A stretch of 62,613 nucleotides of DNA, counting the filler. It is 5 parts of 5 records of this genome, joined end to end, with 100 filler letters (N's around TTAATTAATTAA, not from the genome) between each part and the next. Parts side by side here need not be neighbours in the genome. Positions count along the whole stretch, not along the records: positions 1 to 22,406 come from SRR31156797_5823; 4 more parts are not named here. One strand, given 5' to 3'. Made by a program: the position numbers and the translations under genes. Below the pieces are notes generated by a model that was given only the letters and a program-made list of their open reading frames with translations, was not told the origin of the DNA and searched no databases. Positions 739-39,742 of this stretch are shown piece by piece. Positions within the stretch are counted from its first letter, which is position 1. Each line of letters opens with the position of its first letter.

Positions 739-1668
739 ATGAATAGAAGGATTACGGGCATATTTTTTTTCATATGGGCATGCCTTTTTATCACCGGCAT
801 TGCTTTTGCCGCCGGCACCAACCAAGATACCAAAAGAGAGTGCGCCAACAGGTTGCAATTTGCCGGATTGCTGGACAAACTACTGGATCCCGAAAGCAAG
901 GAAAACAAAATTCTTTCGGGAGCGGTTTCGCTTCTGGGGTCTGCTTCTGAAATCGACTATAAATCCGAGAGAACCATCGGTGAAAGCCTGGCACTTGAAG
1001 GATTTCGTCGTTATGGATTGCCCGTCAAGGACAAAGCCCTTCAAAAATATGTAAACCTGGTGGGTAACGCTGTGGCAATGAATTCCGAGCGACCTGAAAT
1101 CCCATACAATTTCGTCGTGGTGGACAGCCCGCTGCAAAATGCCTTCAGCTGTCCGGGGGGCATCATTTTCATTAGTTCGGGCCTTTTGAAAACAATTCAA
1201 AGCGAAGACCAGTTGGCCGGAATCCTGGCCCACGAGGTGGCCCATGTGGGACATAAGCATGCACTGAAGTCCGTCCAGCGGGCGCAGTTTTTTAATGGTG
1301 TTGGTAAAATCACATCCGCCACCATGGAAGGGGAGAAGGGAAAACAGTTTGAAAACATGATCGGCGGTCTGCAGGACACCCTCTTTGACAAGGGCCTTGA
1401 CCAAAATATGGAATTTGAGGCGGACGCAAGCGCCATGGAAACCGCCTACCGTACCGGGTATGACCCCAATGGTCTGATTGGAGTGCTGAAAGAACTCAAA
1501 CGGATTCAATCCGGATCCACCCGGCAAGGCTCCTGGTTTTCCACCCATCCCCCCTTGCAGCAGAGGATCCGGAATTGTCAGGGTCAACTTGGTAAATACC
1601 CTGATGCAAAGAGCCTGGCCCATCTTACGAATCGATTCCAGCAATATCAAAACCGTATCCCCCACTGA
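739..1668 (+). CDS. M48 family zinc metalloprotease (exported)
   Basis: Signal peptide, NAFSCPGG, HEVAH zinc motif, E-F-E-A-D, FSTHP. Confidence 0.9.
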   Translation: MNRRITGIFFFIWACLFITGIAFAAGTNQDTKRECANRLQFAGLLDKLLDPESKENKILSGAVSLLGSASEIDYKSERTIGESLALEGFRRYGLPVKDKALQKYVNLVGNAVAMNSERPEIPYNFVVVDSPLQNAFSCPGGIIFISSGLLKTIQSEDQLAGILAHEVAHVGHKHALKSVQRAQFFNGVGKITSATMEGEKGKQFENMIGGLQDTLFDKGLDQNMEFEADASAMETAYRTGYDPNGLIGVLKELKRIQSGSTRQGSWFSTHPPLQQRIRNCQGQLGKYPDAKSLAHLTNRFQQYQNRIPH

Positions 1669-1701
1669 TGTCTTCTTTGTACTTCTCCCCGACCTGGAGC
1701 C

Positions 1702-3144
1702 ATGACCATGAATATTGTAGAGCAGCCTGACAAACTCGACAAGCACTACGGCGCTGAAACCATTCCACCCGTTCGACTACCACTGGACATGGGATCCCTG
1801 GTTGAAGCCTTCAAACATATCCTGGACCGGGTTTATTCAGGTATTATTTTCTGCGACAAAGATTCCAAAATCCTGTTTATGAATCGTTTCTATGCCAGTC
1901 TTCTGAAAGCGGACCGGGAAGAGGCTGTCGGGAAGCACATTAAAAAATATTTTCCCTCATCCCGGCTGCCGGTTGTTCTTGAAACGGGCCAGGCGGAGCT
2001 GGGCAAGAAATGCAGTTTGCGAACCAATCTTGCACTGCTCGTGAACCGTGTGCCCATTGAACGGGATGGTGAGACGGTGGGGGTGGTTCTGCAAACCACA
2101 TTCAGGGATTTCACCGAGATCAACGACGTGATAACCCGCCTCAATCTGCTGGAAAAGGAGGTCAATTATTACAAAGAAGAGTTGGGCAACATCCTTTCGG
2201 CCACCTATTCCTTTGAATCCATTGTGGGTAAAAACAAACGTTTGGTCGACGCCAAAAGAATGGCTGAAAAGTACGCCAGAACCGATTCTCCCGTTTTGAT
2301 ACTGGGTGCTACGGGAACCGGCAAGGAGCTGTTTGCCCACGCGGTCCACCGGGCCAGCCGACGGAAAAACGGGCCGTTTGTGTGCGTCAATTGCGCGGCA
2401 ATCCCAAGGGAACTTCTGGAATCGGAACTTTTCGGCTATGTGGCCGGCGCATTTACCGGCGCCAAACGGGGGGGAAAGTCCGGAAAGATCGAAATGGCCC
2501 ATGGGGGAACCCTTTTCCTGGATGAAATCGGTGATCTTCCCCTGAACGCCCAGGCAAAGCTGTTGCGGGTTCTGGAAACCAAAAAGATCGAGCGGGTCGG
2601 GGGCGTGAAAACCAGTTCCGTGGATTTCAGGCTGGTGGCCGCCACCAACAAGGGCCTTCGAGAAATGATTCACCGCAATGAATTTCGTGAAGATGTCTTT
2701 TATCGGCTTAATACCCTGACCGTGGAAATCCCGTCGCTTTCTGAAAGAACCGACGATATTCCGGCGCTGGTTCATTTTTTCCTCAAATCGTCCGGAAATG
2801 GGCATATGGAAGTCTCGGAAGCTGTGATTAAGATGCTGGAGTGCTATTCCTGGCCGGGCAATGTCCGGGAGTTAAAAAATGTGGTCATGCGGGCCATCAG
2901 TTTAATCGAAGGTCATACTTTTGAAGTGGAACACTTGCCCATGGAAATCGTTCGTTTTCAGTCCGACTGTTCGGATCAAACCCCGTCCCACATCGGACCC
3001 CTTTCAACGGAATTGAAACGTTACGAAAAAAAAGTGTTGGCGCAAGCCTTGCGCTTGAACAGTGGCAACATGAGCAAAACGGCCAGGTTGCTCGGTATTT
3101 CCCGGTCCACCCTCTACGAAAAATGCCGTATTCATGAACTTTGA
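1702..3144 (+). CDS. PAS-domain sigma54-dependent transcriptional activator (bEBP, Fis-type HTH)
   Basis: PAS-like N-terminus, Walker [15 protein letters not shown] loop, [15 protein letters not shown]-terminal HTH ([15 protein letters not shown]). Confidence 0.95.
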
Positions 3145-3166
3145 TTTTTTTCACCTCCTCTGAAAC

Positions 3167-3202
3167 TGTCCGGAAACCCGGACACGTCCGGATATTCGGA
3201 CA
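3167..3202. promoter_or_regulatory. Tandem palindromic upstream activator sequences for the bEBP
   Basis: TGTCCGGAAACCCGGACA (3167-3184) immediately followed by CGTCCGGATATTCGGACA (3185-3202), ~135-170 bp upstream of a sigma54 promoter. Confidence 0.75.
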
Positions 3203-3336
3203 TATTTTTTAACCTTTCGGAATTGATATCCTCCTTTTAAAATCCTTTAATAATTCTCCCTTATAAAACTTTTTCTTTGTATTTTCTTATATATAAATGA
3301 AATCTCATGGATCCGGAATCCTGATAGTCAGAGCTA

Positions 3337-3352
3337 TGGCATCTCTTTTGCA
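3337..3352 (+). promoter_or_regulatory. Sigma54 (-24/-12) promoter
   Basis: TGGCATCTCTTTTGCA; GG at 3338-39 and GC at 3350-51 have canonical spacing; AT-rich tract between UAS and promoter. Confidence 0.85.
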
Positions 3353-3479
3353 TTTCATGCTGGGAATTCCATATCAGAGGAACTATTCATATGCAGACAT
3401 TAACTCCAGGGCCTCATGGGGAAAAAATGTCTGATCAACAAGTCATTGGATGTAAAATTTTCAGGAGGGAAATTTCATT

Positions 3480-5123
3480 ATGGACGGAAAATATGTTCGG
3501 AGTGAGTTTATTGTTCCCCGTTGTACCGACGCGTGCCCGGCCGGGGTAGATGTGCCCCGGTACATCCGCGCCGTAAAAGACGGCAAGTATGATGAGGCCG
3601 TTTCGGTATTAAGGGAAAAACTACCTTTGCCGACGGTTTGCGCGGATGCATGTTTTGCCCCTTGCGAAGAGGTGTGTGCATACAAGCAGTTCGGGGATCC
3701 GATTGCGATTCGCGCTATCAAACGGGCGGCGGTGGACAATGGTGGAGATGCTTGGAAAAGCGCCAGGAAAACAGCGGCTAAAACCGGTAAAAAAGCCGCG
3801 GTGGTCGGTGCCGGCCCAGCGGGTTTGACGGTCGCCTATTATCTGGCCGGTAAGGGCCATGACGTGACGCTGTTTGACGCTTTTCCCAAAGCGGGTGGTG
3901 CCATGCGGTATGGCATTCCCAATTATCGACTGCCTGAAGAGAGACTGGACAAGGACATCAGCGACATCCTGGAGAAGGGCATCACTTTCAAAGGGGAAAC
4001 GGTCATTGGAAAAGATGTGACCATGGACGACCTCAAGAAGGATTTTGACGCTGTTTTTCTGGGCTCCGGTGCCAACGGCAGCACAAAGATTGACGTGGAC
4101 GGCTCCGACAAGGACGGCGTGTTCTGGGGATGGGATTTCCTCAAAGATGTTGCCTTGGGTGAAACATTCGACATGAACGGTGATGTGGTCGTCGTGGGTG
4201 GCGGAAACGTGGCCATTGACGTGGCGTTGACCGCGAGACGTCTGGGCGCCGAAAACGTAGGGTTGTTTTGCCTGGAATCCCGGGAAGAAATGCCGGCCCA
4301 TGCCTGGGAAATTGCCCGGGCAGAAGAAGAAGGCGTCGTAATCAATAACGGATGGGGTCCGGTGGAAGTACTGGGAGACGGAGCGGCTGCAGGGTTGCGT
4401 TTTCAGAAATGTGTAGCCGTATTTGATAAGACCTGCACTTTCAACCCGGTCTTTGACACTCAAAGCACCGAAAAGGCGGATGCGTCAACCATCATTCTGG
4501 CCGTTGGCCAGACCGCCGATCTGGGTTATGTGGAAGGGCAAGCCGGTATTGAAGCGGACAAGGGCCGTGTTGCCGTATCCGATACTCAGGTTACGGGCGA
4601 TGCCGCGGTGTTTGCCGGCGGCGATGTGGTCAGTGGTCCTGACTCCATTATCAACGCCATTGCTCAGGGTCGGAAAGCGGCCGGTGCCATGGATGCCCAC
4701 CTGGGTGGCGACGGTAATATAGAGGAAGTCCTGGCAACACCCGAGGACGAGATTTCTCTGCCACCCTTTTTGATGGATGTAAAACCTCGAAACGAAATGG
4801 GCATTTTGAAACCATGGGCGCGACTGAATGGTTTTGATCAGGTGGAAACCGGTCTCAGCGATCAGGCCATTACAGCTGAAGCGGGTCGATGCCTGAACTG
4901 CGATGCCCGTAAGTTCGAGGTGGTTTTGAATATTGAAAACTGTAAAGAATGTGGGTATTGCATAGAAGCTTGTGGTGTGGGTACATTCGGTCCTGCCAGT
5001 ATTTTCAATACAAAGGGGTATCGGCCGGCCGAGGTCAAGTCTTCAGATTGGTGCGTTGGGTGCTTCAAGTGCTACTTTTCCTGCCCCGACTTCGCCATTG
5101 ATGTTGCAGAAGTAATAGCCTGA
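3480..5123 (+). CDS. GltD/NfnB-like FAD/NAD(P) oxidoreductase fused to a C-terminal 2x[4Fe-4S] ferredoxin (OFOR delta-like)
   Basis: CTDACP, VVGAGPAG, YGIP, GGGNVAID, AGGDVVSG, EAGRCLNC, then CKECGYCIEAC and CVGCFKCYFSCP. Confidence 0.85.
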   Translation: MDGKYVRSEFIVPRCTDACPAGVDVPRYIRAVKDGKYDEAVSVLREKLPLPTVCADACFAPCEEVCAYKQFGDPIAIRAIKRAAVDNGGDAWKSARKTAAKTGKKAAVVGAGPAGLTVAYYLAGKGHDVTLFDAFPKAGGAMRYGIPNYRLPEERLDKDISDILEKGITFKGETVIGKDVTMDDLKKDFDAVFLGSGANGSTKIDVDGSDKDGVFWGWDFLKDVALGETFDMNGDVVVVGGGNVAIDVALTARRLGAENVGLFCLESREEMPAHAWEIARAEEEGVVINNGWGPVEVLGDGAAAGLRFQKCVAVFDKTCTFNPVFDTQSTEKADASTIILAVGQTADLGYVEGQAGIEADKGRVAVSDTQVTGDAAVFAGGDVVSGPDSIINAIAQGRKAAGAMDAHLGGDGNIEEVLATPEDEISLPPFLMDVKPRNEMGILKPWARLNGFDQVETGLSDQAITAEAGRCLNCDARKFEVVLNIENCKECGYCIEACGVGTFGPASIFNTKGYRPAEVKSSDWCVGCFKCYFSCPDFAIDVAEVIA

Positions 5124-5145
5124 AACCTGAAGGAGGGTTAATCAT

Positions 5146-6321
5146 ATGAAAAGGTATTTGGAAACAGGAAATTTCGCGATCACCGAAGGGGCGATTCTGG
5201 CGGGTTGCAGATTCTTCTCCGGCTATCCGATTACGCCGGCCACCGAATTGGCGGAAGCCATGAGCCACAGGCTGCCCCAGGTGAACGGAGTCTATCTGCA
5301 AGCCGAGGACGAGTGTGCCGCCATGCACATGTGCATCGGCGCATCCCTGGGCGGCATGAAGGCCATGACGGCCACATCGGGACCCGGTTTTATTTTGTAT
5401 ATGGATCCCTACGGCTGGGCTTTGGGCTGTGAATCTCCCATGGTGGTTCTCAACTCAGGCCGTGTGGGACCCGTGAGCGGTATTACGGGAGCACCGGGTC
5501 AGGGAGAATTCTATCTCATGCGTTACCCCACCCAGGGTGGAAACTTTGAAGCCATCTGCCTGGCGCCCAATACGGCACAGGAATGCATGGCCATGACCGT
5601 TGAGGCCTTCTACCTGTCTGAGCGGTTCCGCATGCCCGTGTCCGTTTTGGCGGACCAGCTCATTACCGACGGATTTGAAGACATCAGTGTTCCTGAAAAT
5701 GACGATGAGATGAAAGAGATGGGTTTTCGCACATGGCCCAGAAAAATCTGCCGGGGACCTGAATTCTATCCGGCAACAGACGCCCTGGATGTACCCCCGG
5801 TGGTCATGGGACACAACACCGGCGCGCTCTGTTCCGACTGGACCCCCACCGAAGAGGGTTTTGACATCGAAGAGGTGGAAGCCCATCACAAACATGCCTA
5901 TAGACTGATTTACAAAGTCCGGAACAACAAGGACATCTTTAATCATCACTACGAGAAGAAGTACATGGACGATGATCCGGACCTGGTGGTGGTCTCCTAC
6001 GGCAGCCCCTCACGGGTGGTCAACACGGCCGTTGAAAAAGCGCGTGGCATGGGGCTGAAAATCGGATCCCTCCGTCTCATCAATATCTGGCCCTTTCCCG
6101 ACGAACATTTCGACCGCAAGACCAAATATCTGTCCGTGGAACTCAACTGGGACGGTCAACTGGTCCGTGAAGTGAAGCGAGCGGCGCCCAAGGATAGCCA
6201 GATCAATTTCCTGGGGACCTGCGGGGACTTGCCCACCACCCCCGATCTGATTGAAACCTTTGAGAAAATCCTTAAAGATGAGCCCCTCAGTCGACAAGGT
6301 TGGGTATTGGAGGAATGGTAG
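5146..6321 (+). CDS. 2-oxoacid:ferredoxin oxidoreductase alpha subunit (KorA/VorB-like)
   Basis: GYPITP, QAEDE, TATSGPG, AFYLSERFRMPV, IWPFP; RBS AGGAGG. Confidence 0.9.
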   Translation: MKRYLETGNFAITEGAILAGCRFFSGYPITPATELAEAMSHRLPQVNGVYLQAEDECAAMHMCIGASLGGMKAMTATSGPGFILYMDPYGWALGCESPMVVLNSGRVGPVSGITGAPGQGEFYLMRYPTQGGNFEAICLAPNTAQECMAMTVEAFYLSERFRMPVSVLADQLITDGFEDISVPENDDEMKEMGFRTWPRKICRGPEFYPATDALDVPPVVMGHNTGALCSDWTPTEEGFDIEEVEAHHKHAYRLIYKVRNNKDIFNHHYEKKYMDDDPDLVVVSYGSPSRVVNTAVEKARGMGLKIGSLRLINIWPFPDEHFDRKTKYLSVELNWDGQLVREVKRAAPKDSQINFLGTCGDLPTTPDLIETFEKILKDEPLSRQGWVLEEW

Positions 6322-7170
6322 ATGGAATATAAAGCGAGCGAAATTACTGCAAAATATTTACGTTCCAGGAAGATCCCCAGCACGGCGTGTTCCGGATGCG
6401 GCCTGGGAATGAACCACAAGGTTCTGGTACAGGCCATTGATGAGCTGGGCCTGGATGTGGCGGATGTCATCTGGGGTACTTCCATCGGATGTGCCGGCCG
6501 GCAGACCTTTGCCACCTGGAAAGGGGATGGCTTCGCCGGAACACACGGCAGGGTGTATGCCATCGCCCGGGGGCTGCGCATTGCCCTTCCGCCGGAAAAG
6601 AAGATTATCCTGACCGTTGGAGACGGGGATGCATTCGGTATCGGCCTCATGCACCTGATTCACGCGGCCCGGTCCAACGCTGACATGACCGTGCTGGTCA
6701 ACGACAACCTGGGTTACCAGTCCACCGGCGGGCAGTATGGGTGGACCACGCCCCAGGGCAGCCACACGGACAGCAGCCCCTACGGCATGTTTGAGCACAA
6801 CCTCATGAGCGACGGTATGGATGTCATGCACATTTTGAAAGGCGCCGGCGCAACCTTCCTGGCACGCCATGTGGCCATGGACGGAGCCCGGGCTGTTGAC
6901 ACCGTCAAGAAAGCCATCGAGAATAAAGGTTTTTCACTGGTTCACATGCCTTACCCCTGCCCCACCAATTTCGGCTCCAGGGAGTTGGGGTCCAGAAACC
7001 AGGTCAATATCTACAAATGGATTGAAAGACAGGCGGCACCCCTGGGTCAGGAGAAGGAAGATACGGTGTGGGCCACAGGCATATGGCATGATGCCAGCAA
7101 CTCCAGGCCTGAGTTTTCCGAATTTGTGCACGAGACCCTCGAAAAGATCAGGAGGACCGGAAGCATATGA
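6322..7170 (+). CDS. 2-oxoacid:ferredoxin oxidoreductase beta subunit (TPP-binding)
   Basis: CSGCG, IGC, THGR, GDGDA TPP motif, TGGQ, PCPT. Confidence 0.9.
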   Translation: MEYKASEITAKYLRSRKIPSTACSGCGLGMNHKVLVQAIDELGLDVADVIWGTSIGCAGRQTFATWKGDGFAGTHGRVYAIARGLRIALPPEKKIILTVGDGDAFGIGLMHLIHAARSNADMTVLVNDNLGYQSTGGQYGWTTPQGSHTDSSPYGMFEHNLMSDGMDVMHILKGAGATFLARHVAMDGARAVDTVKKAIENKGFSLVHMPYPCPTNFGSRELGSRNQVNIYKWIERQAAPLGQEKEDTVWATGIWHDASNSRPEFSEFVHETLEKIRRTGSI

Positions 7171-7700
7171 AAAACAGAATCGAAATTGTGGCAAGCGGTT
7201 TTGGCGGACAGGGCGTCGTCAGGCTCGGGCAGATTGTTGGAGAAGCCGGGGTCAAGCAGGATCTGCACGTGACCATGCTCAAGAGTCACGGTACGGAAAT
7301 GCGCGGCGGCTATGTGAGGAGTCAGGTGGTCCTGTCCAAAAGTATTATCGACAGCCCCATGTGTGAATCCCCGGACTATTTTGTGGCACTCTCCAAGGGG
7401 GCCTATGACCGGTTCAAGGACACGGTACCGGCGGAAGGGTTGATCATCTATGACCCGGCCTTCGTGGAAGAGATTGACGAAAGTCTTCCCTGCACCCAGA
7501 AGGCCTTTCCCGCAAAGGATCTTTCCATGGAGCATTTCAACAATCCGCTTTTTGCCAACACCCTGGTGCTGGGCCATATGGCAAAGGTGATTGACGGCCT
7601 TGAAAAGGATGTGGTCTTAGAAAGCATCCTGATGGTGATTCCCAAGTTCCACGACCGGAATCGTCAGGCCTACCAGATCGGCTATGATTACGGTAACTGA
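7167..7700 (+). CDS. 2-oxoacid:ferredoxin oxidoreductase gamma subunit
   Basis: GFGGQG, GTEMRGG, SQVVLS; ATGA overlap with beta. Confidence 0.9.
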   Translation: MKNRIEIVASGFGGQGVVRLGQIVGEAGVKQDLHVTMLKSHGTEMRGGYVRSQVVLSKSIIDSPMCESPDYFVALSKGAYDRFKDTVPAEGLIIYDPAFVEEIDESLPCTQKAFPAKDLSMEHFNNPLFANTLVLGHMAKVIDGLEKDVVLESILMVIPKFHDRNRQAYQIGYDYGN

Positions 7701-7752
7701 TTTGACGTTGCCGATACGAAACCCTCAGTCTAAAGAAAGGGGTAATTAGTTA

Positions 7753-9285
7753 ATGCGGACTATCAGGTATTTTATCGACAAACGGGCCGAGAATGAGCCG
7801 GATAAGACCTATATGATAGCCCCTGAGCCTGGATTGAGTCTATCCTATGGACAGCTGCAGGAAGACTCAATCCGGTTTGCAAAATATCTGGCAAAGATGG
7901 GGTTAGAAAAGGGAGATAAGGTCTCCTTCATGTTGGCGAACGGCTACCAGGCCAATAAAATATTTCAAGGAACCATGTATGGGGGGTTCGTGGTGGCACC
8001 CCTCAACTTGATGGCTCAGCCTTCCCAGTTGGTATATGTGCTGGAGCATTCGGACACCAAGGTTGTCTTTTATTCCGAAGACCAGAAAGATCGCCTGACA
8101 ACGGCTGCGGCCGAAGTGGCGCGGGACATCAAGCTTATAGAGATTGATAATGATTCGGAAAGTATTATCCCTGGAAATGAGGATTTTTCAGGTCTATCAC
8201 TTCCGGAGGTAGCAGAAGAGGATGATGCGCTGTTGTTATACACCTCCGGAACCACCGGTGTGCCCAAGGGCGTGATACTATCCAACAAGAATATGGTGGC
8301 GGGCGGTGAATACACCACCCTGGCCCATGAATTGACACCTGAAGACCGGGCACTTTGCTCCCTTCCCCTTTATCACATTAATGGGGAAGTGGTCACATCC
8401 GTGACACCCCTGGTGAGTGGGAGCAGCGTCGTGGTGCCCAGGAAATTCAGCACCAGCAATTTCTGGGAATTGATATCCGAATACAAATGCACCTGGTTCA
8501 GCGTGGTGCCCACCATGATTTCATATCTGTGCAGCGCAACGGATCTTTCAGGGAAAGATTTCAACCTGGACCAGGTCCGTTTCGGCCGGTCCGCTTCCTC
8601 GGCCCTGCCACCGTCCTTGCACCACACATTTGAAGAAAAATTCGGCATTTCCATTGTGGAAACCATGGGCCTTACCGAGACGGCGGCACCTGTCTTCTCC
8701 AACCCCATGGATCCCAAACTGCGAAAGTATGGATCACCGGGCCCCGCCGTGGGGAACACCGCCAAGATTATCGATGAAAAGGGCGTTGAACTACCGCGAG
8801 GAGAGCAGGGCGAGATCATGATCAAGGGCGACAATGTCATGAAGGAATATTACAAGGCGCCCGATATTACGGCAAACACCATTGAACCGGATGGATGGCT
8901 TCATACGGGGGATCTGGGATATATGGACGAAGACGGGTTTGTCTTTGTCACAGGCCGGATCAAGGAACTCATTATCAAGGGAGGCGAAAATATTGCTCCC
9001 AAGGAGATTGATGAGGCCCTTTACCAACACCCTGCCGTATTGGACGCGGCGGCGGTGGGGATTCCCGATGACGCATATGGTGAAGAAATTCTGGCTTGTG
9101 TCACCCTGCAGCCCGGTAGCAACATTACCGAGCAGGAATTGTTGGACCACTGCATGGAACTGCTGGGGAAATTTAAGACCCCTAAGACCATCAAGCTGAT
9201 GGACGAGCTACCAAAGGGACCATCCGGGAAAATTCAACGACTGAAATTGCCCGATTTAATAAAAAAACTTGAGGAAACCCTATGA
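7753..9285 (+). CDS. AMP-forming acyl-CoA ligase, resembling sulfoacetate-CoA ligase SauT
   Basis: YTSGTTGVPKG, LPLYHING, RSASSALPP, ETMGLTETAAP..SNP, TGDLG, KELIIKGGENIAP, LPKGPSGKIQRLKL. Ligase call firm; SauT assignment from recalled motif resemblance only. Confidence 0.85.
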   Translation: MRTIRYFIDKRAENEPDKTYMIAPEPGLSLSYGQLQEDSIRFAKYLAKMGLEKGDKVSFMLANGYQANKIFQGTMYGGFVVAPLNLMAQPSQLVYVLEHSDTKVVFYSEDQKDRLTTAAAEVARDIKLIEIDNDSESIIPGNEDFSGLSLPEVAEEDDALLLYTSGTTGVPKGVILSNKNMVAGGEYTTLAHELTPEDRALCSLPLYHINGEVVTSVTPLVSGSSVVVPRKFSTSNFWELISEYKCTWFSVVPTMISYLCSATDLSGKDFNLDQVRFGRSASSALPPSLHHTFEEKFGISIVETMGLTETAAPVFSNPMDPKLRKYGSPGPAVGNTAKIIDEKGVELPRGEQGEIMIKGDNVMKEYYKAPDITANTIEPDGWLHTGDLGYMDEDGFVFVTGRIKELIIKGGENIAPKEIDEALYQHPAVLDAAAVGIPDDAYGEEILACVTLQPGSNITEQELLDHCMELLGKFKTPKTIKLMDELPKGPSGKIQRLKLPDLIKKLEETL

Positions 9286-9513
9286 TTTTGCTCAGGTTTA
9301 ATTCTTTGGTTACCTGAATTTCAATGTTTTTTGGATATTGTCATTCAGGGTATATATGGTAAAAAACGCGGTAAACGATGATGGTGAAAGGCGCAAGGCA
9401 TTTCGCAGAAGATATTTTTCTGCCAAAAGTCTTGGGCCTTTTGCCGTTTCAATTTTTTTGAGTTTTCTGTAAGCTACCCAGGCCAACCCGGTTTTACAGA
9501 CGAGGTTTCCCAT

Positions 9514-11022
9514 ATGGCAGAATTCTTGCAATATTTCCCACAAGCACTGACCTTTACCAACTTATTAACCCTTATCCTGGGCGTGATCGGCGGCCTTATT
9601 CTCGGGGCAACCCCCGGTCTCAGCCCCACCATGGCCGTTGCCCTTCTGGTCCCTTTTACCTTTCATATGGATCCCGCCACGGGCCTGATCCTGCTCGGCG
9701 CGGTCTATACCGCAACGGTGGCGGGCGGCGCCATCTCCGCGATCCTCATTAACATTCCCGGTGCTCCCGCCAACATTGCCACGCTGCTGGACGGTCATCC
9801 CATGGCCCGGCAAGGCAGATCCCAGACGGCCCTTTATTATTGTTTCATCAGTTCACTGGTGGGCGGTTTGATCGGCATGGTGATCATGATCCTGTTCACC
9901 CCGCCGCTGGCGAGAATCGCCTTGAAGTTCGGACCTTCGGAAATGTTCTGGATCGCCATTTTCGGCATCAGCGTTATGGCGGGTCTTTCATCCGGATCTA
10001 TTTTGAAAGGATTGTTGGGGGGCATGTTCGGACTTTTGATCAGTACCATCGGATACAGTCCCCTGTTGGGGTCTCCCCGGTTTGTGTATCACGATGTGTT
10101 GACGGGCGGTGTGGCCATTGTTCCTGCACTCATCGGCCTTTTTGCCATTCCACAGGTCTTCAACTTGGTGGAAAGCTTAGGCAGCAAATTGGAACGGCCT
10201 GATTTCAAGCCGGAAAAAGGTATCCTTTTCAAAACCATTGCCGATAACCTGAAGATGGTGAAAAGCCTGGGTATCGGCTCCATTGTCGGTTCCATCATCG
10301 GCATCATTCCCGGAGCCGGCGGACAGGTGGCCGGTCTTATCGCCTACGACCAGGCCAAAAAGTTTTCCAAAAAGCCCGAATCCTTCGGCACCGGCAACCC
10401 GGAAGGGGTAGCGGCCGCGGAATCGGCAAACAATGCCATGGTAGGCCCGTCTTTAATCCCGCTGCTCACCTTGAGTATCCCCGGCAGTCCCACCGCGGCG
10501 GTTTTACTGGGCGGGCTTTTGATTCATGGTCTTTTCCCCGGACCCGATCTTTTCATCAACAACGCTTCCGTAACCTATACATTTATTGCCAGCCTGGTAT
10601 TGGCACAAATTGCCATGTGCATATTCGGCATTATCCTGTCCCGTTATTCGTATATGGTCATGAGCGTTCCCAACCTGTTTATGATTGCCGCTGTGACCAT
10701 TCTGGCGGTTTACGGCACCTACAGCGTTCAGAACAGTTTTGATGATGTGATCGTCATGTTTTCCCTGGGAACACTCATGTATATCGGCCGGAAATTCGGC
10801 TTTTCACCGGCCCCGGTGGTACTGGGGATTATCCTGGGGCCCATTGCAGAAGATAATTTTCTGAAAGGGAAATTGATCGCCGATACGGATGTGGGGGTAT
10901 TTTCCTATTTTTTTACGGGATCCATGAACATTGTCATCATTCTACTCTGCGCTGCATCCATCGGTTACAGCATCTATGGTGAGATCAGGGCGTACCGGAA
11001 GGCAAAGGAGGCTGCGGTTTGA
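9514..11022 (+). CDS. tctA: Tripartite tricarboxylate transporter large subunit TctA
   Basis: GATPGLSPTMAVALL, NIPGAP, TLLDGHPMA, AAESANNA, LLTLSIPGS; multiple TM helices. Confidence 0.92.
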   Translation: MAEFLQYFPQALTFTNLLTLILGVIGGLILGATPGLSPTMAVALLVPFTFHMDPATGLILLGAVYTATVAGGAISAILINIPGAPANIATLLDGHPMARQGRSQTALYYCFISSLVGGLIGMVIMILFTPPLARIALKFGPSEMFWIAIFGISVMAGLSSGSILKGLLGGMFGLLISTIGYSPLLGSPRFVYHDVLTGGVAIVPALIGLFAIPQVFNLVESLGSKLERPDFKPEKGILFKTIADNLKMVKSLGIGSIVGSIIGIIPGAGGQVAGLIAYDQAKKFSKKPESFGTGNPEGVAAAESANNAMVGPSLIPLLTLSIPGSPTAAVLLGGLLIHGLFPGPDLFINNASVTYTFIASLVLAQIAMCIFGIILSRYSYMVMSVPNLFMIAAVTILAVYGTYSVQNSFDDVIVMFSLGTLMYIGRKFGFSPAPVVLGIILGPIAEDNFLKGKLIADTDVGVFSYFFTGSMNIVIILLCAASIGYSIYGEIRAYRKAKEAAV

Positions 11023-11462
11023 AAAAAGATCTGATTGTTTCACTGGTTCTATTGGCGGGGATTATCAGCCTTTATCTTTCCCTGGGTGCCATGGATGACC
11101 CCCGGGCCGCGAACTTTCCCAAGGTGATTATTATCATCATGGGCGTCTTGTCGGCATTGCTGTTGCTTCAGTCGCTCATCTTGAAGCAACCCAAAAGTTC
11201 CCAGGGAGCGGGTTTTCCCTTCGGGCGCTTTTTGATCTGTTTTTTCATGATTATCATTTATTTTATTTTCATGGAGGCCCTGGGGTTCTACCTTTCGGCC
11301 TTTCTGTTTTTTGTTTTGGTAACGTGTATTCTGGGGATCAGCGACCTGACGGCTCGCACGGCTGTCATGAGAGTAATTGTGGGCTTTGTGTTCACCGGCA
11401 TTCTGTTTCTCCTGTTCAATGTACTTCTGGCGGTTCAAACCCCCAAAGGGTTGTTAATGTAG
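11019..11462 (+). CDS. tctB: Tripartite tricarboxylate transporter small subunit TctB
   Basis: 147 aa, 4-5 TM helices, FP and LGF motifs, C-terminal P-x-G; between tctA and tctC. Confidence 0.85.
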   Translation: MKKDLIVSLVLLAGIISLYLSLGAMDDPRAANFPKVIIIIMGVLSALLLLQSLILKQPKSSQGAGFPFGRFLICFFMIIIYFIFMEALGFYLSAFLFFVLVTCILGISDLTARTAVMRVIVGFVFTGILFLLFNVLLAVQTPKGLLM

Positions 11463-11548
11463 GTTCATCATGTCGGAAAGAGAGGCTTTTCGACGTTTTT
11501 AGATGAGGGAGGCGCCTCATCAATTCATTTTTTTAGGGAGGAGAAATC

Positions 11549-12529
11549 GTGAAAAAGAGAAGCTTTGGTTTAGTGGGAATGGTTTTTTTCATGGCGACGG
11601 TGATGATTTTCGGTTTGGGTTCGGCGGTTCAAGCCGAGTATCCCAAATCCCCGGTGAGCATGATTGTACCTTATTCACCGGGCGGTGCCACGGACTTTCA
11701 AGCCCGTATCGTCACCATGATGGCAGGTCAGGAACAATATCTGGGTCAACCCATTGTGATCATCAATAAGCCCGGCGCGGGGGGACAGGTGGGATGGAAC
11801 TGGTGTGCTCAGAAAGCACCCAAAGACGGATATACCATGCTGAGCTACAATGTCCCCCATTTCATCGCCCAGTCCATTGTTTTCAGGACCAAATATAATA
11901 TCAAAACCTTTGCGCCCGTCGCCAATTGGGGCGCGGACCCGGCGGTATTGATTGTGGGAAAAGACAGCCCCTTCAACACGGTTCAGGATCTTCTGGATTA
12001 CGCGAAAAAGAACCCCCGTAAAGTCACCGTGAGCGGCGCAGGCCTCTATGTGGGGCACCATATCGCCTTTCTGCAGCTGGCCAAAGCCACGGGCGCCAAA
12101 ATGACCTACATCCCCGAAAAGGGCGGCGTACCGGCCATGCAGTCGGTGATTGCCGGAAAAGTGAAGGCCGGTTTCAATAACCTTTCCGATGCTTTCCGAA
12201 ACAAGGACCGCCTGAAAATCTTAGGCGTTGCCGATCTGGAACGGAACAGTTTTCTGCCGGATGTTAAAACCTTCAAGGAGCAGGGGATCGACATTGATGA
12301 TTCCAGCGTCAACTTCAGGGGCGTTGCCTTCCCGGCAGGCGTATCCGAAGATATCATCAATAAGAGCGCTGATGTTTTTCCCAAAATGTTCAGCTCAAAA
12401 AAGACCTTGAAGAAAATGAAGGGCAGCGGCAGTCCCGTTCGCGTGATGACCCGGGACCAGGTCATTAAAATGTGGCAGGAACGACAGACTTACCTGGAAA
12501 GTCTTTTGAAGGATCTCAAGAAAAAGTAA
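11549..12529 (+). CDS. tctC: Tripartite tricarboxylate transporter substrate-binding protein TctC (Bug family)
   Basis: Signal peptide, YP..PV.MIVPYSPGGATD, NKPGAGG, DGYT. Confidence 0.92.
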   Translation: MKKRSFGLVGMVFFMATVMIFGLGSAVQAEYPKSPVSMIVPYSPGGATDFQARIVTMMAGQEQYLGQPIVIINKPGAGGQVGWNWCAQKAPKDGYTMLSYNVPHFIAQSIVFRTKYNIKTFAPVANWGADPAVLIVGKDSPFNTVQDLLDYAKKNPRKVTVSGAGLYVGHHIAFLQLAKATGAKMTYIPEKGGVPAMQSVIAGKVKAGFNNLSDAFRNKDRLKILGVADLERNSFLPDVKTFKEQGIDIDDSSVNFRGVAFPAGVSEDIINKSADVFPKMFSSKKTLKKMKGSGSPVRVMTRDQVIKMWQERQTYLESLLKDLKKK

Positions 12530-12546
12530 TATTTTTTGTGCTTAAC

Positions 12547-12581
12547 CCAGGTGTTCCCACGCTCTGCGTGGGAACACCTGG
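12547..12581. repeat. Perfect 16-bp inverted repeat (REP-like / terminator) after tctC
   Basis: CCAGGTGTTCCCACGC-TCT-GCGTGGGAACACCTGG. Confidence 0.7.
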
Positions 12582-12748
12582 AAAAACCCCATACTGCCTA
12601 CCGTCAACTTCTTCCCTTCATTATTGACAACCGTTATCAATCACGACATTATGCATCTATGGCATGCATACTACGGATGATCCTTGGAGACCCGCATAAT
12701 ATAATGCAGGGTGGGAATGACTACAAATCTGAGTAAACCGGCACATCC

Positions 12749-13690
12749 ATGAAAACTTCTGAGACGTCTCATTCCATGAAAGGGTACCTTTGTGTTGCGG
12801 CGGCGGCGGTTATGTGGGCTTCCTCCGGGACAGCGGGAAAGGCCCTCTTTACCGACGGCATGACCCCATTCCAGCTGGTACAGATCCGGGTAACGGTTTC
12901 CACCGTACTTCTGGCTGTTGTTTTTGGAATCCGGTTCAGGCCCCTCTTTAGAATCCGGCCCGGGGATCTCTGGTATTTTTTCCTTCTGGGTGGCGTGGTG
13001 ATGGCCCTGGTCCAGGTGACCTATTTTTATGCCATCAGCAAAATCCAGGTGGCCGCCGCCATCTTTCTCCAGTACCTGGCCCCCGTTATGGTGGCTTTTT
13101 TTTCCATCTGTTTCTGGAAGGAATGTTTCACGCCCACCAAATTCACGGCACTGCTCCTGTCCCTGGGAGGCTGCTACCTCGTTGTGGGAGGATACAGCCT
13201 CCACCTGTTAAAAATGAATCAGCTGGGAATTCTTGCGGGCCTCTCATCGGCTTTGTGTTTCGCGGCCTATACCCTCGTTGGTGAAAGAGGCATGCACCGC
13301 TATTCCCCCTGGACCGTCCTTTTTTACGCCTTCCTCTTCGCAACCATCACTTGGCACGTGTTTTATCCCCCATTCCAGTATCTCGCCACCGACTTCACCA
13401 TCCCCCAGTGGGGTTGGATTTTCTACGTTTCCATTGTCGGGACCGTTCTCCCTTTTGGCCTTTTTTTCGTGGGCGTAAACCATGTCCGTTCCACACGAGC
13501 ATCCATTACCGCCACCCTGGAGCCGATCTCGGCAGGTCTGTTTGCCTACCTTTTTTTAGGTGAATCACTCCAGCCCCTTCAGATTGCAGGGGGTGTCATG
13601 GTCGTAACCGCCATTATCGTGCTTCAAATGAAGAAAGAGCAGGATGCCTTGTCCCCGGCAAGCATAAGACACCGTTGCAGCACTTCCTGA
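12749..13690 (+). CDS. EamA/DMT family transporter
   Basis: ~10 TM helices, duplicated EamA halves, LQYLAP and LEP motifs. Confidence 0.9.
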   Translation: MKTSETSHSMKGYLCVAAAAVMWASSGTAGKALFTDGMTPFQLVQIRVTVSTVLLAVVFGIRFRPLFRIRPGDLWYFFLLGGVVMALVQVTYFYAISKIQVAAAIFLQYLAPVMVAFFSICFWKECFTPTKFTALLLSLGGCYLVVGGYSLHLLKMNQLGILAGLSSALCFAAYTLVGERGMHRYSPWTVLFYAFLFATITWHVFYPPFQYLATDFTIPQWGWIFYVSIVGTVLPFGLFFVGVNHVRSTRASITATLEPISAGLFAYLFLGESLQPLQIAGGVMVVTAIIVLQMKKEQDALSPASIRHRCSTS

Positions 13691-37237: not shown

Positions 37238-37294
37238 GTACAGCTTTTTGATTGATTGTTTTTTTGTCAACTCAAAACAGAAAACACAAAACAA

Positions 37295-37555
37295 ATGAAT
37301 AAAGTTACAGTAATTGATGTTCGTACGCCGATGGAATTTGCCGGAGGCAGGGTAGAGGGATCAATCAATATTCCGGTTGATCAAATTGCACAAAGAATAG
37401 ATGAGTTAAAAGCAATTGAAGGATCAATTGTTTTATGTTGCGCTTCAGGAATGCGTAGTTTCTCGGCATGGCAATATTTACAAGCTAATGGTTTAGCTAA
37501 TGTAAGCGATGGTGGCCCTTGGTATGCCGTAGCTGATATGGTTGAGCAAAACTAA
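37295..37555 (+). CDS. Single-domain rhodanese (sulfurtransferase)
   Basis: IDVRTP.EF, GSINIP, CCASGMRS; start moved to ATG 37295. Confidence 0.9.
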   Translation: MNKVTVIDVRTPMEFAGGRVEGSINIPVDQIAQRIDELKAIEGSIVLCCASGMRSFSAWQYLQANGLANVSDGGPWYAVADMVEQN

Positions 37556-37633
37556 TCGCTTATTCATTCTATTTATCAGAAATCATTCAATTCAAATTAC
37601 CAACAGTACTGCTGGTAGATTCAAGTTTTTATT

Positions 37634-37966
37634 ATGGGATTTTTAAGTCGTTTATTTGGAGGAGGAGCTAATCCTTTAACTGAGATACTAGAACAAGGTG
37701 CAACTATTATTGATGTAAGAACACCGGGTGAATTTGCCGGAGGTAGTGTTCCCGGATCTATTAATATTCCGGTAGATCAAGTGAAGCACAAACTAAGTAA
37801 AATTAAAAAGATGCGTACGCCATTGGTGCTGTGCTGTGCATCCGGAATGAGAAGTGCAGGAGCAGTAGCTTTCTTAAAAAGCAATCAAATTCAAGATGTA
37901 CACAACGGAGGTCGCTGGTATAAGGTAGAGAGTTTATTGGAAAAAACGATTAACAGTACACAGTAA
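37634..37966 (+). CDS. Single-domain rhodanese (sulfurtransferase)
   Basis: IIDVRTPGEF, GSINIP, CCASGMRS. Confidence 0.9.
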   Translation: MGFLSRLFGGGANPLTEILEQGATIIDVRTPGEFAGGSVPGSINIPVDQVKHKLSKIKKMRTPLVLCCASGMRSAGAVAFLKSNQIQDVHNGGRWYKVESLLEKTINSTQ

Positions 37967-38020
37967 TCAGTTACCAGTACGCAGTAAACATTTATCAGTA
38001 CGCAGTAATCAGAAAACAGT
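37954..38020. repeat. 21-bp tandem repeat built from CAGT-N3 heptamers
   Basis: CAGTACACAGTAATCAGTTAC / CAGTACGCAGTAAACATTTAT / CAGTACGCAGTAATCAGAAAA / CAGT at 37954, 37975, 37996, 38017. Confidence 0.8.
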
Positions 38021-38086
38021 GATTTGGCATGGGTGTTTATTAACAAATTATATAAACGAATAGCCAAAGGCTAATAGCTAAAGAAC

Positions 38087-39742
38087 ATGAGTAAAAAAAT
38101 TATAGTGATTGGAGGTCTTTCTGCTGGTCCTTCTGCTGCAGCAAAAGCGCGGAGACAAAATGAAGATGCAGAGATTATTCTTTTTGAAAAGACAAAAAAC
38201 GTAAGTTATGCTACTTGTGGTATTCCTTATGCTTTATCAGGTGTGATAGATAATCGTGATAATCTTATGGTGGTTGAAGCCGATTTATTGCGTTACAGAT
38301 TTAATATTGACGTACATCTTGAAGAAGAAGTGTTGGATATCGATCCGGAAAGCCATTTGCTTACTACCAACAAAGGAGAATATACATACGACAAATTAGT
38401 ATATACAGCCGGAGCGAGTACATTTATTCCGCCGGTTAAAAATATTGAGCAAGGTAAAAACTGGTCAGCATGTCGTACGTTAGAGGACTACGACTGTATT
38501 ATGCACAAGGATGTCATGGAACAGGCTAAGCATATTACGGTAATGGGTGCCGGTTTAATTGGTGTTGAGGTGGCAGAAAATCTTCGTGAAGCAGGTAAAG
38601 AAGTAACACTCATTGAGGGTAGCGATGGTATATTACCTATGTGGGAAGGAAAGTTCCGTCAATTTGCACAATCTACTTTAGAAAGTCACGGTATAAGGGT
38701 TATTACCAACACTTTTGTAAAAAAATTTGATGTGGAGGGTGGTCGAATTACAGGAGTGCAGGTAAGTGATACCGAAACTATTCCTACGGATTTTGTGGTG
38801 ATGAGTGTAGGAATTAAACCAAATACACAGTTATTAACTGCCAAAGGAGCTGAGTTCATCGGTAACGGTGCGGTTAAAGTTAATGAGCGTATGGAAACTA
38901 CTCTACCTGACATTTACGCGGCAGGTGACTGTGCCAGTATTAAAAATGTACAAACAGGAGAGTATGATTATCTGCCATTAGGAACACACTCTAACAAAGG
39001 TGGTCGTACTGCAGGTGTAAACGCAGCTGGTGGTAACGAGGAGTTTAAAGGAGGATATAAAACAGCCATCATTAAAGTATTTGAAAATACGCTGGGAAGA
39101 ACCGGGATGGGGCCTGAGTTTATGCGTAATAATAATATTGATTTTGCCGTAAACTTAATTGTAGCCGGATCAACACCTGGATATTATCCTGATCAAAAAG
39201 ATATGATTGTAGAAACGTATTACGATCCGAAAGACGGTACTATTTTAGGTTGTGAGGCATTTGGCGAAAGAGGAGTGGATAAGCGTATTGATGTTATGAG
39301 TACAGCCATTTATGCCAAGTTAAAAATGAGTGATTTACCTAATTTAGATTTAGCTTATGCACCGCCATATTCACCTGCAAAAGATCCTGTAATTGTATCT
39401 GCTTATGTGACTTCGAATGTGTTGAATGGTAGATATGATGAAGTTGATGCTACTACATTAAAAGAGTTGATTAATTGTACGCCTCATTGTGATTTTAACC
39501 TGATTGATGTGAGAACTGAGGGAGAAGTGAAAAAGACAGGAAAAATTGCACATGCCATTAATATTCCATTAGAAAAACTTAGATCACATTCATTGGAGGG
39601 ATTGGATCCATCAAAACCTACATACGTGTATTGTGCAAAAGGTTTAAGGGGGTATTTAGGATATTTGATTTTAGCTGATAAAGGGTTTACCAATTTAAAA
39701 AACCTTTCCGGAGGTTTTATGATTTGGAGTAAATTAAACTAA
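38087..39742 (+). CDS. CoA-disulfide reductase-rhodanese fusion (CoADR-RHD / Npsr-like persulfide reductase)
   Basis: IGG..AG, SYATCGIPY, GAGLIG.E, YAAGD, LDLAYAPP, C-terminal rhodanese with YCAKGLRG. Confidence 0.9.
   Translation: MSKKIIVIGGLSAGPSAAAKARRQNEDAEIILFEKTKNVSYATCGIPYALSGVIDNRDNLMVVEADLLRYRFNIDVHLEEEVLDIDPESHLLTTNKGEYTYDKLVYTAGASTFIPPVKNIEQGKNWSACRTLEDYDCIMHKDVMEQAKHITVMGAGLIGVEVAENLREAGKEVTLIEGSDGILPMWEGKFRQFAQSTLESHGIRVITNTFVKKFDVEGGRITGVQVSDTETIPTDFVVMSVGIKPNTQLLTAKGAEFIGNGAVKVNERMETTLPDIYAAGDCASIKNVQTGEYDYLPLGTHSNKGGRTAGVNAAGGNEEFKGGYKTAIIKVFENTLGRTGMGPEFMRNNNIDFAVNLIVAGSTPGYYPDQKDMIVETYYDPKDGTILGCEAFGERGVDKRIDVMSTAIYAKLKMSDLPNLDLAYAPPYSPAKDPVIVSAYVTSNVLNGRYDEVDATTLKELINCTPHCDFNLIDVRTEGEVKKTGKIAHAINIPLEKLRSHSLEGLDPSKPTYVYCAKGLRGYLGYLILADKGFTNLKNLSGGFMIWSKLN

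Follow-up and report, generated by a model that had tools for sequence, protein, structure and literature searches.

A gene cluster predicted for anaerobic sulfoacetate use pairs a SauT-type ligase with a 2-oxoacid:ferredoxin oxidoreductase that may release sulfite

Breakdown of sulfoquinovose and taurine leaves sulfoacetate as an end product, and what becomes of it in anoxic sediments belongs to the sulfur cycle. How anaerobic bacteria might use it is the question raised by a gene cluster at positions 1702-12529 of a 62,613-nucleotide stretch of DNA (the whole of which is called the 62.6-kb window, or the window, below), in the part that comes from record SRR31156797_5823. The cluster combines an acyl-coenzyme A (acyl-CoA) ligase and a tripartite tricarboxylate transporter (TTT) importer with a 2-oxoacid:ferredoxin oxidoreductase (OFOR), which stands where sulfoacetate clusters of aerobic bacteria have SauS, an acylating sulfoacetaldehyde dehydrogenase. 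What does the OFOR do there? We consider it likely that the cluster serves sulfoacetate and that its OFOR consumes sulfoacetyl-CoA. As to the reaction, we tentatively favor an NAD(P)H-driven reductive desulfonation, in which a flavoprotein-OFOR complex would convert sulfoacetyl-CoA to acetyl-CoA and sulfite.

A first-pass annotation of the sequence had listed the genes of this interval; every item of it was recovered at the same position, and all genes lie on the plus strand:

1702-3144, plus strand: bacterial enhancer-binding protein (bEBP) with an N-terminal PAS sensor, an AAA+ domain and a Fis-type helix-turn-helix (Pfam PAS, Sigma54_activat, AAA_lid_14 and HTH_8)
3168-3201, no strand assigned: two palindromes, GTCCGG-N4-CCGGAC at 3168-3183 and GTCCGG-N5-CGGAC at 3186-3201 (motif scan)
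3337-3352, plus strand: predicted sigma-54 (-24/-12) promoter, TGGCATCTCTTTTGCA, 128 nt ahead of the flavoprotein start codon
3480-5123, plus strand: GltD/NfnB-like NAD(P)H flavoprotein with a C-terminal dicluster ferredoxin domain (Fer4_20, Pyr_redox_2 and Fer4_9)
5146-6321, plus strand: OFOR alpha subunit (POR_N and PFOR_II)
6322-7170, plus strand: OFOR beta subunit, for thiamine pyrophosphate (TPP) and a [4Fe-4S] cluster (TPP_enzyme_C)
7167-7700, plus strand: OFOR gamma subunit (Pfam POR)
7753-9285, plus strand: AMP-forming acyl-CoA ligase of the ANL superfamily (acyl-CoA synthetases, non-ribosomal peptide synthetase adenylation domains and luciferases), SauT clade (AMP-binding PF00501, 263 bits; AMP-binding_C PF13193, 68 bits)
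9514-11022, plus strand: TctA-type large membrane subunit of the TTT importer, SauX/Y-like (Pfam TctA PF01970)
11019-11462, plus strand: TctB-type small membrane subunit (Pfam TctB PF07331)
11549-12529, plus strand: TctC-type periplasmic binding protein, SauZ-like (Pfam TctC PF03401)

The start of the gamma gene overlaps the end of the beta gene by 4 nt. None of the open reading frames (ORFs) scanned in the 62.6-kb window contains an aldehyde dehydrogenase domain of the SauS type, which bears out the earlier remark that SauS is absent and an OFOR sits in its place.

This gene arrangement recurs far beyond chance, since the same order is found in 25 of the 66 loci that the ligase retrieved from species-representative genomes and in 74 of the 80 that OFOR alpha, in an independent scan, retrieved from metagenome contigs (the 74 having an alpha subunit at least 60% identical). 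The resulting 99 OFOR loci are the basis of the comparisons below, in which single loci and host genomes carry L and G numbers. In the 25 genome loci, the ligase adjoins OFOR orthologues with alpha subunits 64-99% identical to that of the window; if the contig is long enough, genes for the flavoprotein and the activator are present too, along with tctABC in 14 loci or a major facilitator superfamily (MFS) transporter in five. Where the sequence extends far enough, the flavoprotein gene is the immediate upstream neighbor of OFOR alpha in all 22 genome loci and in 55 of 56 metagenome loci, and is 485 nt away in the remaining one; a ligase gene is present in 32 of the 38 alpha-found metagenome loci that extend at least 2.2 kb past gamma. 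Conservation of the neighborhood, named as a check by the first-pass annotation, is thus confirmed for the flavoprotein-OFOR-ligase core. The hosts of the genome loci are metagenome-assembled genomes (MAGs) of several orders of Desulfobacterota, together with one Chloroflexota and one Peptococcaceae (Bacillota) MAG. The nearest relatives are a Desulfobacteraceae MAG (ligase 94-97% identical) and a Desulfatiglandales MAG (91%), and in a phylum-wide sample the ligase was found in 6 of 401 genomes.

The substrate is suggested by another part of the ligase scan. Fifteen further loci, from Halomonas and Billgrantia, Pelagibacteraceae, the Olavius Gamma-3 symbiont and gammaproteobacterial MAGs, share the gene order TctA-TctB-TctC-X-ligase, with the ligase last and 47-56% identical to that of the window. 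The protein X is SauS: the five that were tested all score 715-807 bits, against an NCBIfam equivalog cut-off of 600, and with locus L009 (see below) all six tested aldehyde dehydrogenases adjoining such a ligase pass that cut-off. SauS also exceeded it in all 14 genomes of the SauS type. Sulfoacetaldehyde acetyltransferase (Xsc) adjoins the TctABC-SauS-ligase cluster in Halomonas litopenaei, and a SorT sulfite dehydrogenase and a YeiH-type exporter adjoin it in Pelagibacteraceae. Between the window and these 15 loci, TctA is 59-62% and TctC 53-64% identical, so the TTT transporter noted in the first pass is of a type found in sulfoacetate clusters. A study of SauZ establishes this type of TTT as a sulfoacetate importer and reports that SauZ, its binding protein, binds sulfoacetate with a Kd of 0.13 uM, that alphaproteobacterial and gammaproteobacterial SauZ homologues are associated with SauT and SauS, and that 'nearly all' SauZ homologues are associated with SauS (PMC10413351). 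The exceptional homologues without SauS may be clusters of the present OFOR kind. Solved TctC relatives, of lower similarity, bind other carboxylates, and the SauZ of Bilophila wadsworthia is absent among the 120 TctC matches listed.

The ligase itself points the same way. In a maximum-likelihood tree of 47 ligases (a quick search, with the Shimodaira-Hasegawa-like approximate likelihood ratio test, SH-aLRT, as its only support measure and no bootstrap), OFOR-linked and SauS-linked ligases form one clade of 41 rows (SH-aLRT 100, stem of 1.19 substitutions per site) apart from six distant outgroups; the order of subclades inside it is not settled by this tree. The description of the window's enzyme as SauT-like is therefore upheld by its sharing a clade with ligases that adjoin SauS, membership of the SauT clade here meaning gene partnership with SauS rather than comparison with Cupriavidus necator SauT or B. 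wadsworthia SauZ. All 41 clade ligases share 17 invariant residues that none of the six outgroups has, among them Arg279, His192 and the threonine of an 'ETMG' motif that stands where the usual 'YG' stands. Four sequence motifs had been cited earlier as marks of SauT, and all are present (residues 83-102, 204-211, 303-321 and 366-373); two of them, LPLYHING and YYKAPDIT, are generic to ANL enzymes and occur in the outgroups too, whereas the other two carry clade-specific signal. A 71%-identical protein bears the JGI name 'sulfoacetate-CoA ligase', no NCBIfam SauT model is among the best 25 of the 108 families that match, and the window's ligase is not encoded beside SauS.

A betaproteobacterial ligase, L009, nests on a long branch inside the OFOR-linked subclade, although its neighbors are a true SauS (755 bits) and a TauE exporter. 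In this locus (L009:1837-7791, from a MAG), TauE-TctC-SauS precede a tandem pair of ligase paralogues (50 and 62% identical to the window's), after which come genes for an aldo-keto reductase and an Fe-S protein. L113:11444-16203 carries the activator, the flavoprotein and the OFOR (alpha 87% identical), then genes for a SauS-like dehydrogenase (590 bits, just short of the 600 cut-off) and a tripartite ATP-independent periplasmic (TRAP) transporter, DctPQM; it lacks ligase and TTT genes after the OFOR and has a GlcD-like FAD dehydrogenase further downstream. The SauS-like dehydrogenase of L113 would provide a second way to sulfoacetyl-CoA, from the aldehyde. In L092:7030-10667, L142:14328-18114, L143 and L144, the ligase gene is followed by genes for a 139-amino-acid ferredoxin, an aldehyde:ferredoxin oxidoreductase and a class-III (omega) aminotransferase, a possible feeder branch from taurine through sulfoacetaldehyde to sulfoacetate; a class-III aminotransferase also occurs in L097 and an aldehyde:ferredoxin oxidoreductase in L046 and L005. 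A divergent TauE/SafE sulfite exporter gene (L016:13178-14083, minus strand) adjoins the MFS transporter of an OFOR-type cluster, and another TauE lies near the ligase of L005. Across the 99 loci, feeders of sulfoacetyl-CoA thus cluster with the OFOR, whereas genes that would act after the OFOR do not.

Further variation concerns the genes around the OFOR and ligase. An amidase-signature enzyme is encoded between OFOR gamma and the ligase in L008:8221-9780 and in L102 (12671 onward; the two are 91% identical to each other), and one stands beside the ligase in L005:7839-9284; these insertions suggest an amide precursor of sulfoacetate. In L117, L118, L120, L121, L122 and L124, the OFOR is followed by a different TTT (TctC 27-30% and TctA 34-35% identical to those of the window), with the ligase before or after it, and in L117 an isopropylmalate/homocitrate-synthase-like gene and a D-2-hydroxyacid dehydrogenase gene come directly after gamma.

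Could the likeness to sulfoacetate clusters reflect ancestry rather than substrate? The closest solved relatives of the ligase are oxalate-CoA ligases and a malonyl-CoA synthetase, and Arg279 is common to the SauT-clade ligases and the oxalate-CoA ligases, which fits a short acyl group with an anionic substituent. The substrate might then be a non-sulfonated look-alike, such as malonate or another short anionic acid; malonate would be activated to malonyl-CoA, which the OFOR would carboxylate to oxaloacetate. The variants with a class-III aminotransferase and an aldehyde oxidoreductase would then suit a path from beta-alanine through malonate semialdehyde to malonate, PycB/OadA-like carboxyltransferases, which handle oxaloacetate and pyruvate, adjoin the cluster in five loci, and identities of 47-56% for the ligase and 53-64% for TctC are no guarantee of the same ligand. 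We nevertheless find this explanation unlikely. The ligase clade is monophyletic with its SauS partners and has the SauS- and TauE-linked L009 within its OFOR-linked subclade; L113 joins a closely similar OFOR to a SauS-like dehydrogenase; TauE adjoins the cluster of L016; and malonyl-CoA enters metabolism without an OFOR. The hosts argue in the same direction: DsrA was over the cut-off in 19 of the 23 host genomes searched, and sulfite should therefore be useful to nearly all of them. Oxalate and 2-oxoglutarate were considered as well, and were rejected because SauS, Xsc, SorT and TauE genes accompany ligases of this clade. Overall, comparative genomics supports the sulfoacetate assignment of the cluster well.

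An AMP-forming ligase and a binding-protein-dependent importer also fix the direction of the pathway: sulfoacetyl-CoA is made, and the OFOR must therefore consume it. The opposite course would oxidize sulfopyruvate, from sulfolactate or cysteate, to sulfoacetyl-CoA, CO2 and NAD(P)H, with sulfoacetate as the end product; oxidation of sulfolactate-derived sulfopyruvate was one of two directions proposed in the first-pass annotation. NAD(P)+-linked OFORs of Azoarcus reportedly run oxidatively, and GlcD-like dehydrogenases lie near the cluster in L113 and L044 (on the same contig as L085). Even so, we give this course very little credence: its oxidation of sulfolactate-derived sulfopyruvate conflicts with a ligase and a transporter that speak for uptake and activation, not for export and a release that yields ATP; the transporter belongs to the sulfoacetate type; and neither a thioesterase nor an ADP-forming ligase is conserved in the cluster. 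Of that earlier interpretation, the SauT-like ligase, the TTT and the absence of SauS stand, and the oxidative direction is very improbable.

The flavoprotein and the OFOR appear to form one redox system. The flavoprotein matches NCBIfam PRK12771 from end to end, with two N-terminal [4Fe-4S] clusters and folds for FAD and NAD(P), and its residues from about 476 to 544 match OorD/OGOR-delta models. The OFOR has no free-standing delta ferredoxin subunit; its delta-type dicluster domain is the C-terminus of the flavoprotein. Since the flavoprotein is of the NAD(P) type, electrons should travel along the chain NAD(P)H - FAD - Fe-S - Fe-S(delta) - Fe-S(beta) - TPP. The three OFOR proteins, alpha, beta and gamma, clearly belong to the Kor/Oor type with four subunits, although all score below every curated NCBIfam OFOR cut-off; the best relatives of alpha in the PDB are 1yd7, 8ys5 and 6n2n, and the cluster cysteines of beta align with those of solved OFORs. 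In beta, Arg60 stands at the position of Lys49b in StOFOR1 and is invariant in all 25 homologues; an arginine is found there in two solved 2-oxoglutarate enzymes too. A Y-Q-S-T motif replaces the Y-G-L-T of four solved OFORs, its Ser134 being conserved in 25 of 25 homologues and its Gln133 in 24 of 25. According to the StOFOR study (PMC5020499), these beta positions form the substrate side-chain pocket of solved OFORs. With Arg60 and the polar Gln133-Ser134 pair, the pocket should therefore be polar and cationic, as expected for a sulfonate.

If the OFOR consumes sulfoacetyl-CoA, which enzyme breaks the C-S bond? Homologues of Xsc and of SuyB-like, GarD-like, PFL2-type glycyl-radical and TIGR01275 (CuyA-type) proteins were all missing from a tblastn search of the 99 OFOR loci (1.275 Mb). 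In the 23 host genomes, SauS was never over the cut-off, with one match at 554 bits in the Peptococcaceae MAG, and Xsc was over its own in three; in the 14 SauS-type genomes, searched as a control, Xsc was found in 10, and contig ends truncate two further copies. A search for ComE was negative in all 23 host genomes. PFL2-type enzymes occur in 11 of them and TIGR01275 proteins in seven, and frames of PF04295 (the family of SuyB) of SuyB size in seven, while nine have no PF04295 match whatever. In nine genomes (G001, G004, G005, G007, G008, G010, G014, G015 and G021), all four candidates are missing: Xsc, SuyB-sized frames, PFL2-type enzymes and TIGR01275 proteins. Longer PF04295 matches of about 510-545 amino acids were considered as fused SuyAB proteins and discarded, being full-length GarD/UxaA-like proteins in unrelated contexts. 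A SauS search of 301 sampled genomes from the family of a Desulfovibrio piger locus gave two matches below the cut-off, at loci without TTT genes that resemble a CoA-transferase/HMG-CoA-lyase/aconitase-type cluster and are unrelated to the present one.

Given its place in the gene order, the OFOR might simply stand in for SauS, which holds that place in the aerobic clusters, and release sulfoacetaldehyde for Xsc, or lead to isethionate for a glycyl-radical lyase. The chemistry is established, since protonation of the TPP enamine gives an aldehyde in decarboxylases, and the 11 genomes with PFL2-type enzymes and the three with Xsc would have the next step. Another 11 of the 23, however, have neither Xsc nor a PFL2-type enzyme (the nine just named, G022 and G023), the OFOR and the SauS-like gene of L113 would be redundant, and a four-protein Fe-S complex offers no evident advantage over a single dehydrogenase. 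We regard such an analogue of SauS as quite improbable.

The reading that we favor, reductive desulfonation, would dispense with a separate desulfonating enzyme. By orthology, TctABC would take up sulfoacetate, and the ligase, by its clade, would make sulfoacetyl-CoA at the expense of ATP, which is split to AMP and pyrophosphate. Sulfoacetyl-CoA would then acylate the TPP of the OFOR, and two electrons from NAD(P)H, passed through FAD and the Fe-S chain, would yield the 1-hydroxy-2-sulfoethyl-TPP carbanion/enamine, which is the intermediate of Xsc. Elimination of sulfite from this enamine would leave acetyl-TPP, whose acetyl group CoA would capture to give acetyl-CoA. The net reaction would be sulfoacetyl-CoA + NAD(P)H + H+ -> acetyl-CoA + sulfite + NAD(P)+, so that one complex would do the work of SauS, Xsc and Pta, and the sulfite released could serve DsrAB as electron acceptor. 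In L113, the corresponding version would be redox-neutral, from sulfoacetaldehyde and CoA to acetyl-CoA and sulfite. Elimination of beta-leaving groups from TPP enamines is known from Xsc and from TPP enzymes acting on 3-fluoropyruvate. By established thermodynamics, NAD(P)H lacks the reducing power for carboxylation of an acyl-CoA and is ample for the net reaction of SauS, Xsc and Pta. Because the proposed net reaction is exergonic with NAD(P)H, it accounts for the invariant flavoprotein, and because it needs no further gene, it accounts for the self-contained cluster.

Several observations weigh against reductive desulfonation, and some of them speak for its one serious rival, in which the OFOR, as the first-pass annotation proposed, would make 3-sulfopyruvate as a synthase (sulfoacetyl-CoA + CO2 + 2 e- -> 3-sulfopyruvate + CoA) and its product would pass on through sulfolactate and SuyAB, or through cysteate and a CuyA-type lyase, encoded elsewhere in the genome. 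We know of no OFOR that eliminates a beta-substituent as its physiological reaction. Thr257 (of YPITP) and Arg344 of StOFOR2 hold the carboxylate of the 2-oxoacid (PMC5020499). The YPITP Thr30 and the Arg106 of the window's alpha subunit align with them and are invariant in all 24 of the 25 collected alpha homologues whose alignment covers these positions; conserved carboxylate binders are what a genuine carboxylating or decarboxylating OFOR would keep. Arg60 of beta would suit an anionic side chain such as that of sulfopyruvate, as in the 2-oxoglutarate enzymes, and the pairing of an acid-CoA ligase with an OFOR follows the logic of reductive carboxylation known from rumen isoacid physiology. 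Near the cluster, L010-L012 and L117 encode D-2-hydroxyacid dehydrogenases. A recurrent module encodes a biotin carboxyl carrier, a biotin carboxylase, a PycB/OadA-like carboxyltransferase and a beta-keto-acid cleavage enzyme of the BKACE family; it lies downstream of TctC in L018 and L020 and beside the OFOR in L133 (13462-17832), L135 and L139 (12566-13945), which have no ligase; the dehydrogenases and the carboxyltransferases both act on 2-oxoacids. SuyB-sized homologues are present elsewhere in 7 of the 23 genomes, including the closest relatives, G009 and G019, which have SuyA/SuyB-like two-gene units, and the TIGR01275-family genes in seven genomes could supply the cysteate branch. Three more points concern the data: incompleteness of MAGs weakens the absences of desulfonation genes, all hosts are uncultured MAGs or metagenome contigs, and the ligase and TctC of the window were placed without the C. 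necator SauT and B. wadsworthia SauZ sequences in the comparison.

The synthase has difficulties of its own. None of the 99 loci has a clustered enzyme for the steps that would follow, be it SuyAB, ComDE, a CuyA-type lyase or Xsc; nine of the 23 genomes have no member of any candidate desulfonating family, ComE is missing from all 23, and the SuyAB-like units of G019 and G009 are far from the cluster in unrelated contexts. The NAD(P)H flavoprotein accompanies the OFOR in all 78 loci that reach far enough, and acyl-CoA carboxylation with this donor would be uphill by roughly 30 kJ/mol according to established redox potentials. The paired binding site of the activator, moreover, is found at no other operon in the five genomes searched. 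Missing downstream enzymes and an uphill carboxylation with NAD(P)H together weaken the case for sulfopyruvate synthesis, which we hold to be possible but doubtful, and a serious rival still. We therefore prefer reductive desulfonation, at a probability that leaves the preference tentative, and on that reading the OFOR may represent a new oxygen-sensitive, TPP- and Fe-S-dependent class of desulfonating sulfoacetyl-CoA reductase.

How the cluster is controlled can be judged from the 335-nt gap between the bEBP and flavoprotein genes, which holds the palindromes and the sigma-54 site. The pattern TGGCAY-N5-TTGCW has a single match in the window, at 3337-3352 on the plus strand (0.10 expected from shuffled sequences), and the only matches to GTCCGG-N5-CGGAC are those at 3168-3183 and 3186-3201 (0.00 expected). 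The pair at 3168-3201 is likely to form the binding sites of the activator. The same pair in the same 18-nt register recurs in L003, L025 and L046; of five genomes searched, G019, G002 and G023 contain the paired site once each, at the cluster, and the other two lack it. Among loci with enough sequence ahead of the flavoprotein gene, 18 of 20 from genomes and 15 of 42 from metagenomes encode an orthologue of the bEBP there; in L017 a GntR/FCD regulator takes that position, and LysR-type regulators lie nearby in L022. Similar sigma-54 elements are found 5' of the flavoprotein gene in several relatives (for example L003, L014, L021, L044 and L046). Because a strict sigma-54 regular expression matched only part of the related loci, we do not claim sigma-54 control as universal. 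A bEBP, a -24/-12 element and upstream activator sites, the components of a sigma-54-dependent operon, are all predicted in the window, and the cluster would accordingly be an operon for anaerobic sulfoacetate use under a sigma-54/PAS activator. A scan of positions 1500-13000 for terminators and sigma-70 promoters gave fewer terminator-like sites than shuffled sequences and nothing informative.

The proposed pathway can be set beside known systems. The closest are sauRSTU of C. necator H16 and the TctABC-SauS-SauT clusters of alpha- and gammaproteobacteria, both summarized in PMC10413351, to which the present cluster is linked by its ligase clade and a TTT 53-64% identical in its binding protein. 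It differs from them in lacking SauS over the cut-off, both in the window and in the 23 related genomes, in the scarcity of Xsc (3 of 23), and in having a flavoprotein-OFOR system instead; its regulator is a sigma-54 activator with a PAS sensor rather than of the GntR or IclR type, and its hosts are anaerobic sulfite reducers. The same source describes the SauXYZ-SauCD-SauS-TauF-IseG system of B. wadsworthia, which is similarly anaerobic, provides sulfite for respiration, and uses a TTT and sulfoacetyl-CoA. The Bilophila pathway relies on an ADP-forming ligase and SauS, together with an alcohol dehydrogenase and a glycyl-radical lyase, in contrast to the AMP-forming ligase and OFOR complex found here, and no glycyl-radical enzyme is encoded in the 99 loci.

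The proposed likeness to Xsc lies in the chemistry, with the same TPP-bound 1-hydroxy-2-sulfoethyl enamine and the same beta-elimination of sulfite to acetyl-TPP. Xsc, however, has the acetolactate-synthase fold, starts from the aldehyde, works without a redox partner and yields acetyl phosphate, whereas here the fold is that of an OFOR, the enamine would form when an acyl-TPP takes up two electrons, and acetyl-CoA would be released; kinship in sequence is confined to TPP binding. Coupling of an OFOR core to NAD(P) through an FAD/Fe-S protein occurs in the 2-oxoglutarate:NADP+ oxidoreductase KorABC of Azoarcus evansii and in the NADH-dependent phenylglyoxylate dehydrogenase PadEFGHI. These oxidize 2-oxoacids, whereas the present flavoprotein carries the delta ferredoxin as a fused domain and the OFOR is placed after a step that forms an acyl-CoA; Pad models appear as weak matches in the profile search of the window. 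The isoacid modules of ligase and carboxylating OFOR share the sequence acid, acyl-CoA, OFOR. The present cluster is distinguished from them by its NAD(P)H flavoprotein and its sulfonate-type transporter and ligase, and has an omega (class III) transaminase in few variants only.

Other genes of the window deserve mention. Directly after tctC, an EamA-family transporter gene (12749-13690) has no counterpart in any related locus and is therefore probably outside the cluster. Three small rhodanese genes and a gene for a pyridine-nucleotide-disulfide oxidoreductase with a C-terminal rhodanese domain, at 37256-39742 and 55900-56271, lie downstream of a Crp-family regulator and form a separate sulfur-transfer set. 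A methylmalonyl-CoA-mutase-like ORF (40139-41578) matches only positions 208-512 of the profile, followed by a B12-binding domain; possible reasons are a truncated N-terminus and a miscalled start.

To our knowledge, C-S cleavage in C2 and C3 sulfonates is known to proceed by a few routes only, namely Xsc, SuyAB, CuyA and the glycyl-radical lyases. A 2026 review of sulfonate cycling counts SuyAB and Xsc among the desulfonation routes (PMC13436972). A full-text literature search, judged partly from titles and abstracts, found no published description of an OFOR in sulfoacetate metabolism. The cluster described here is widespread in uncultured Desulfobacterota and occurs also in Chloroflexota and Bacillota MAGs, with none of the known desulfonating enzymes inside it. 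The reaction of its OFOR would be one of two chemistries, desulfonation or sulfopyruvate synthesis, both of them undescribed; there is a substantial chance that the cluster contains a new class of desulfonating enzyme. Should the OFOR make sulfopyruvate, it would be the first for a sulfonated oxoacid and would join C2 to C3 sulfonate metabolism. Should it release sulfite, it would provide a fifth, reductive mechanism of C-S cleavage and a new type of reaction in the OFOR family. Sulfoacetyl-CoA would then be a hub in sulfate- and sulfite-reducing sediment bacteria, fed by sulfoacetate through the ligase, by sulfoacetaldehyde through an oxidative SauS-like enzyme as in L113, and possibly by taurine through a class-III aminotransferase and an aldehyde:ferredoxin oxidoreductase of the kind encoded in L092 and L142-144.

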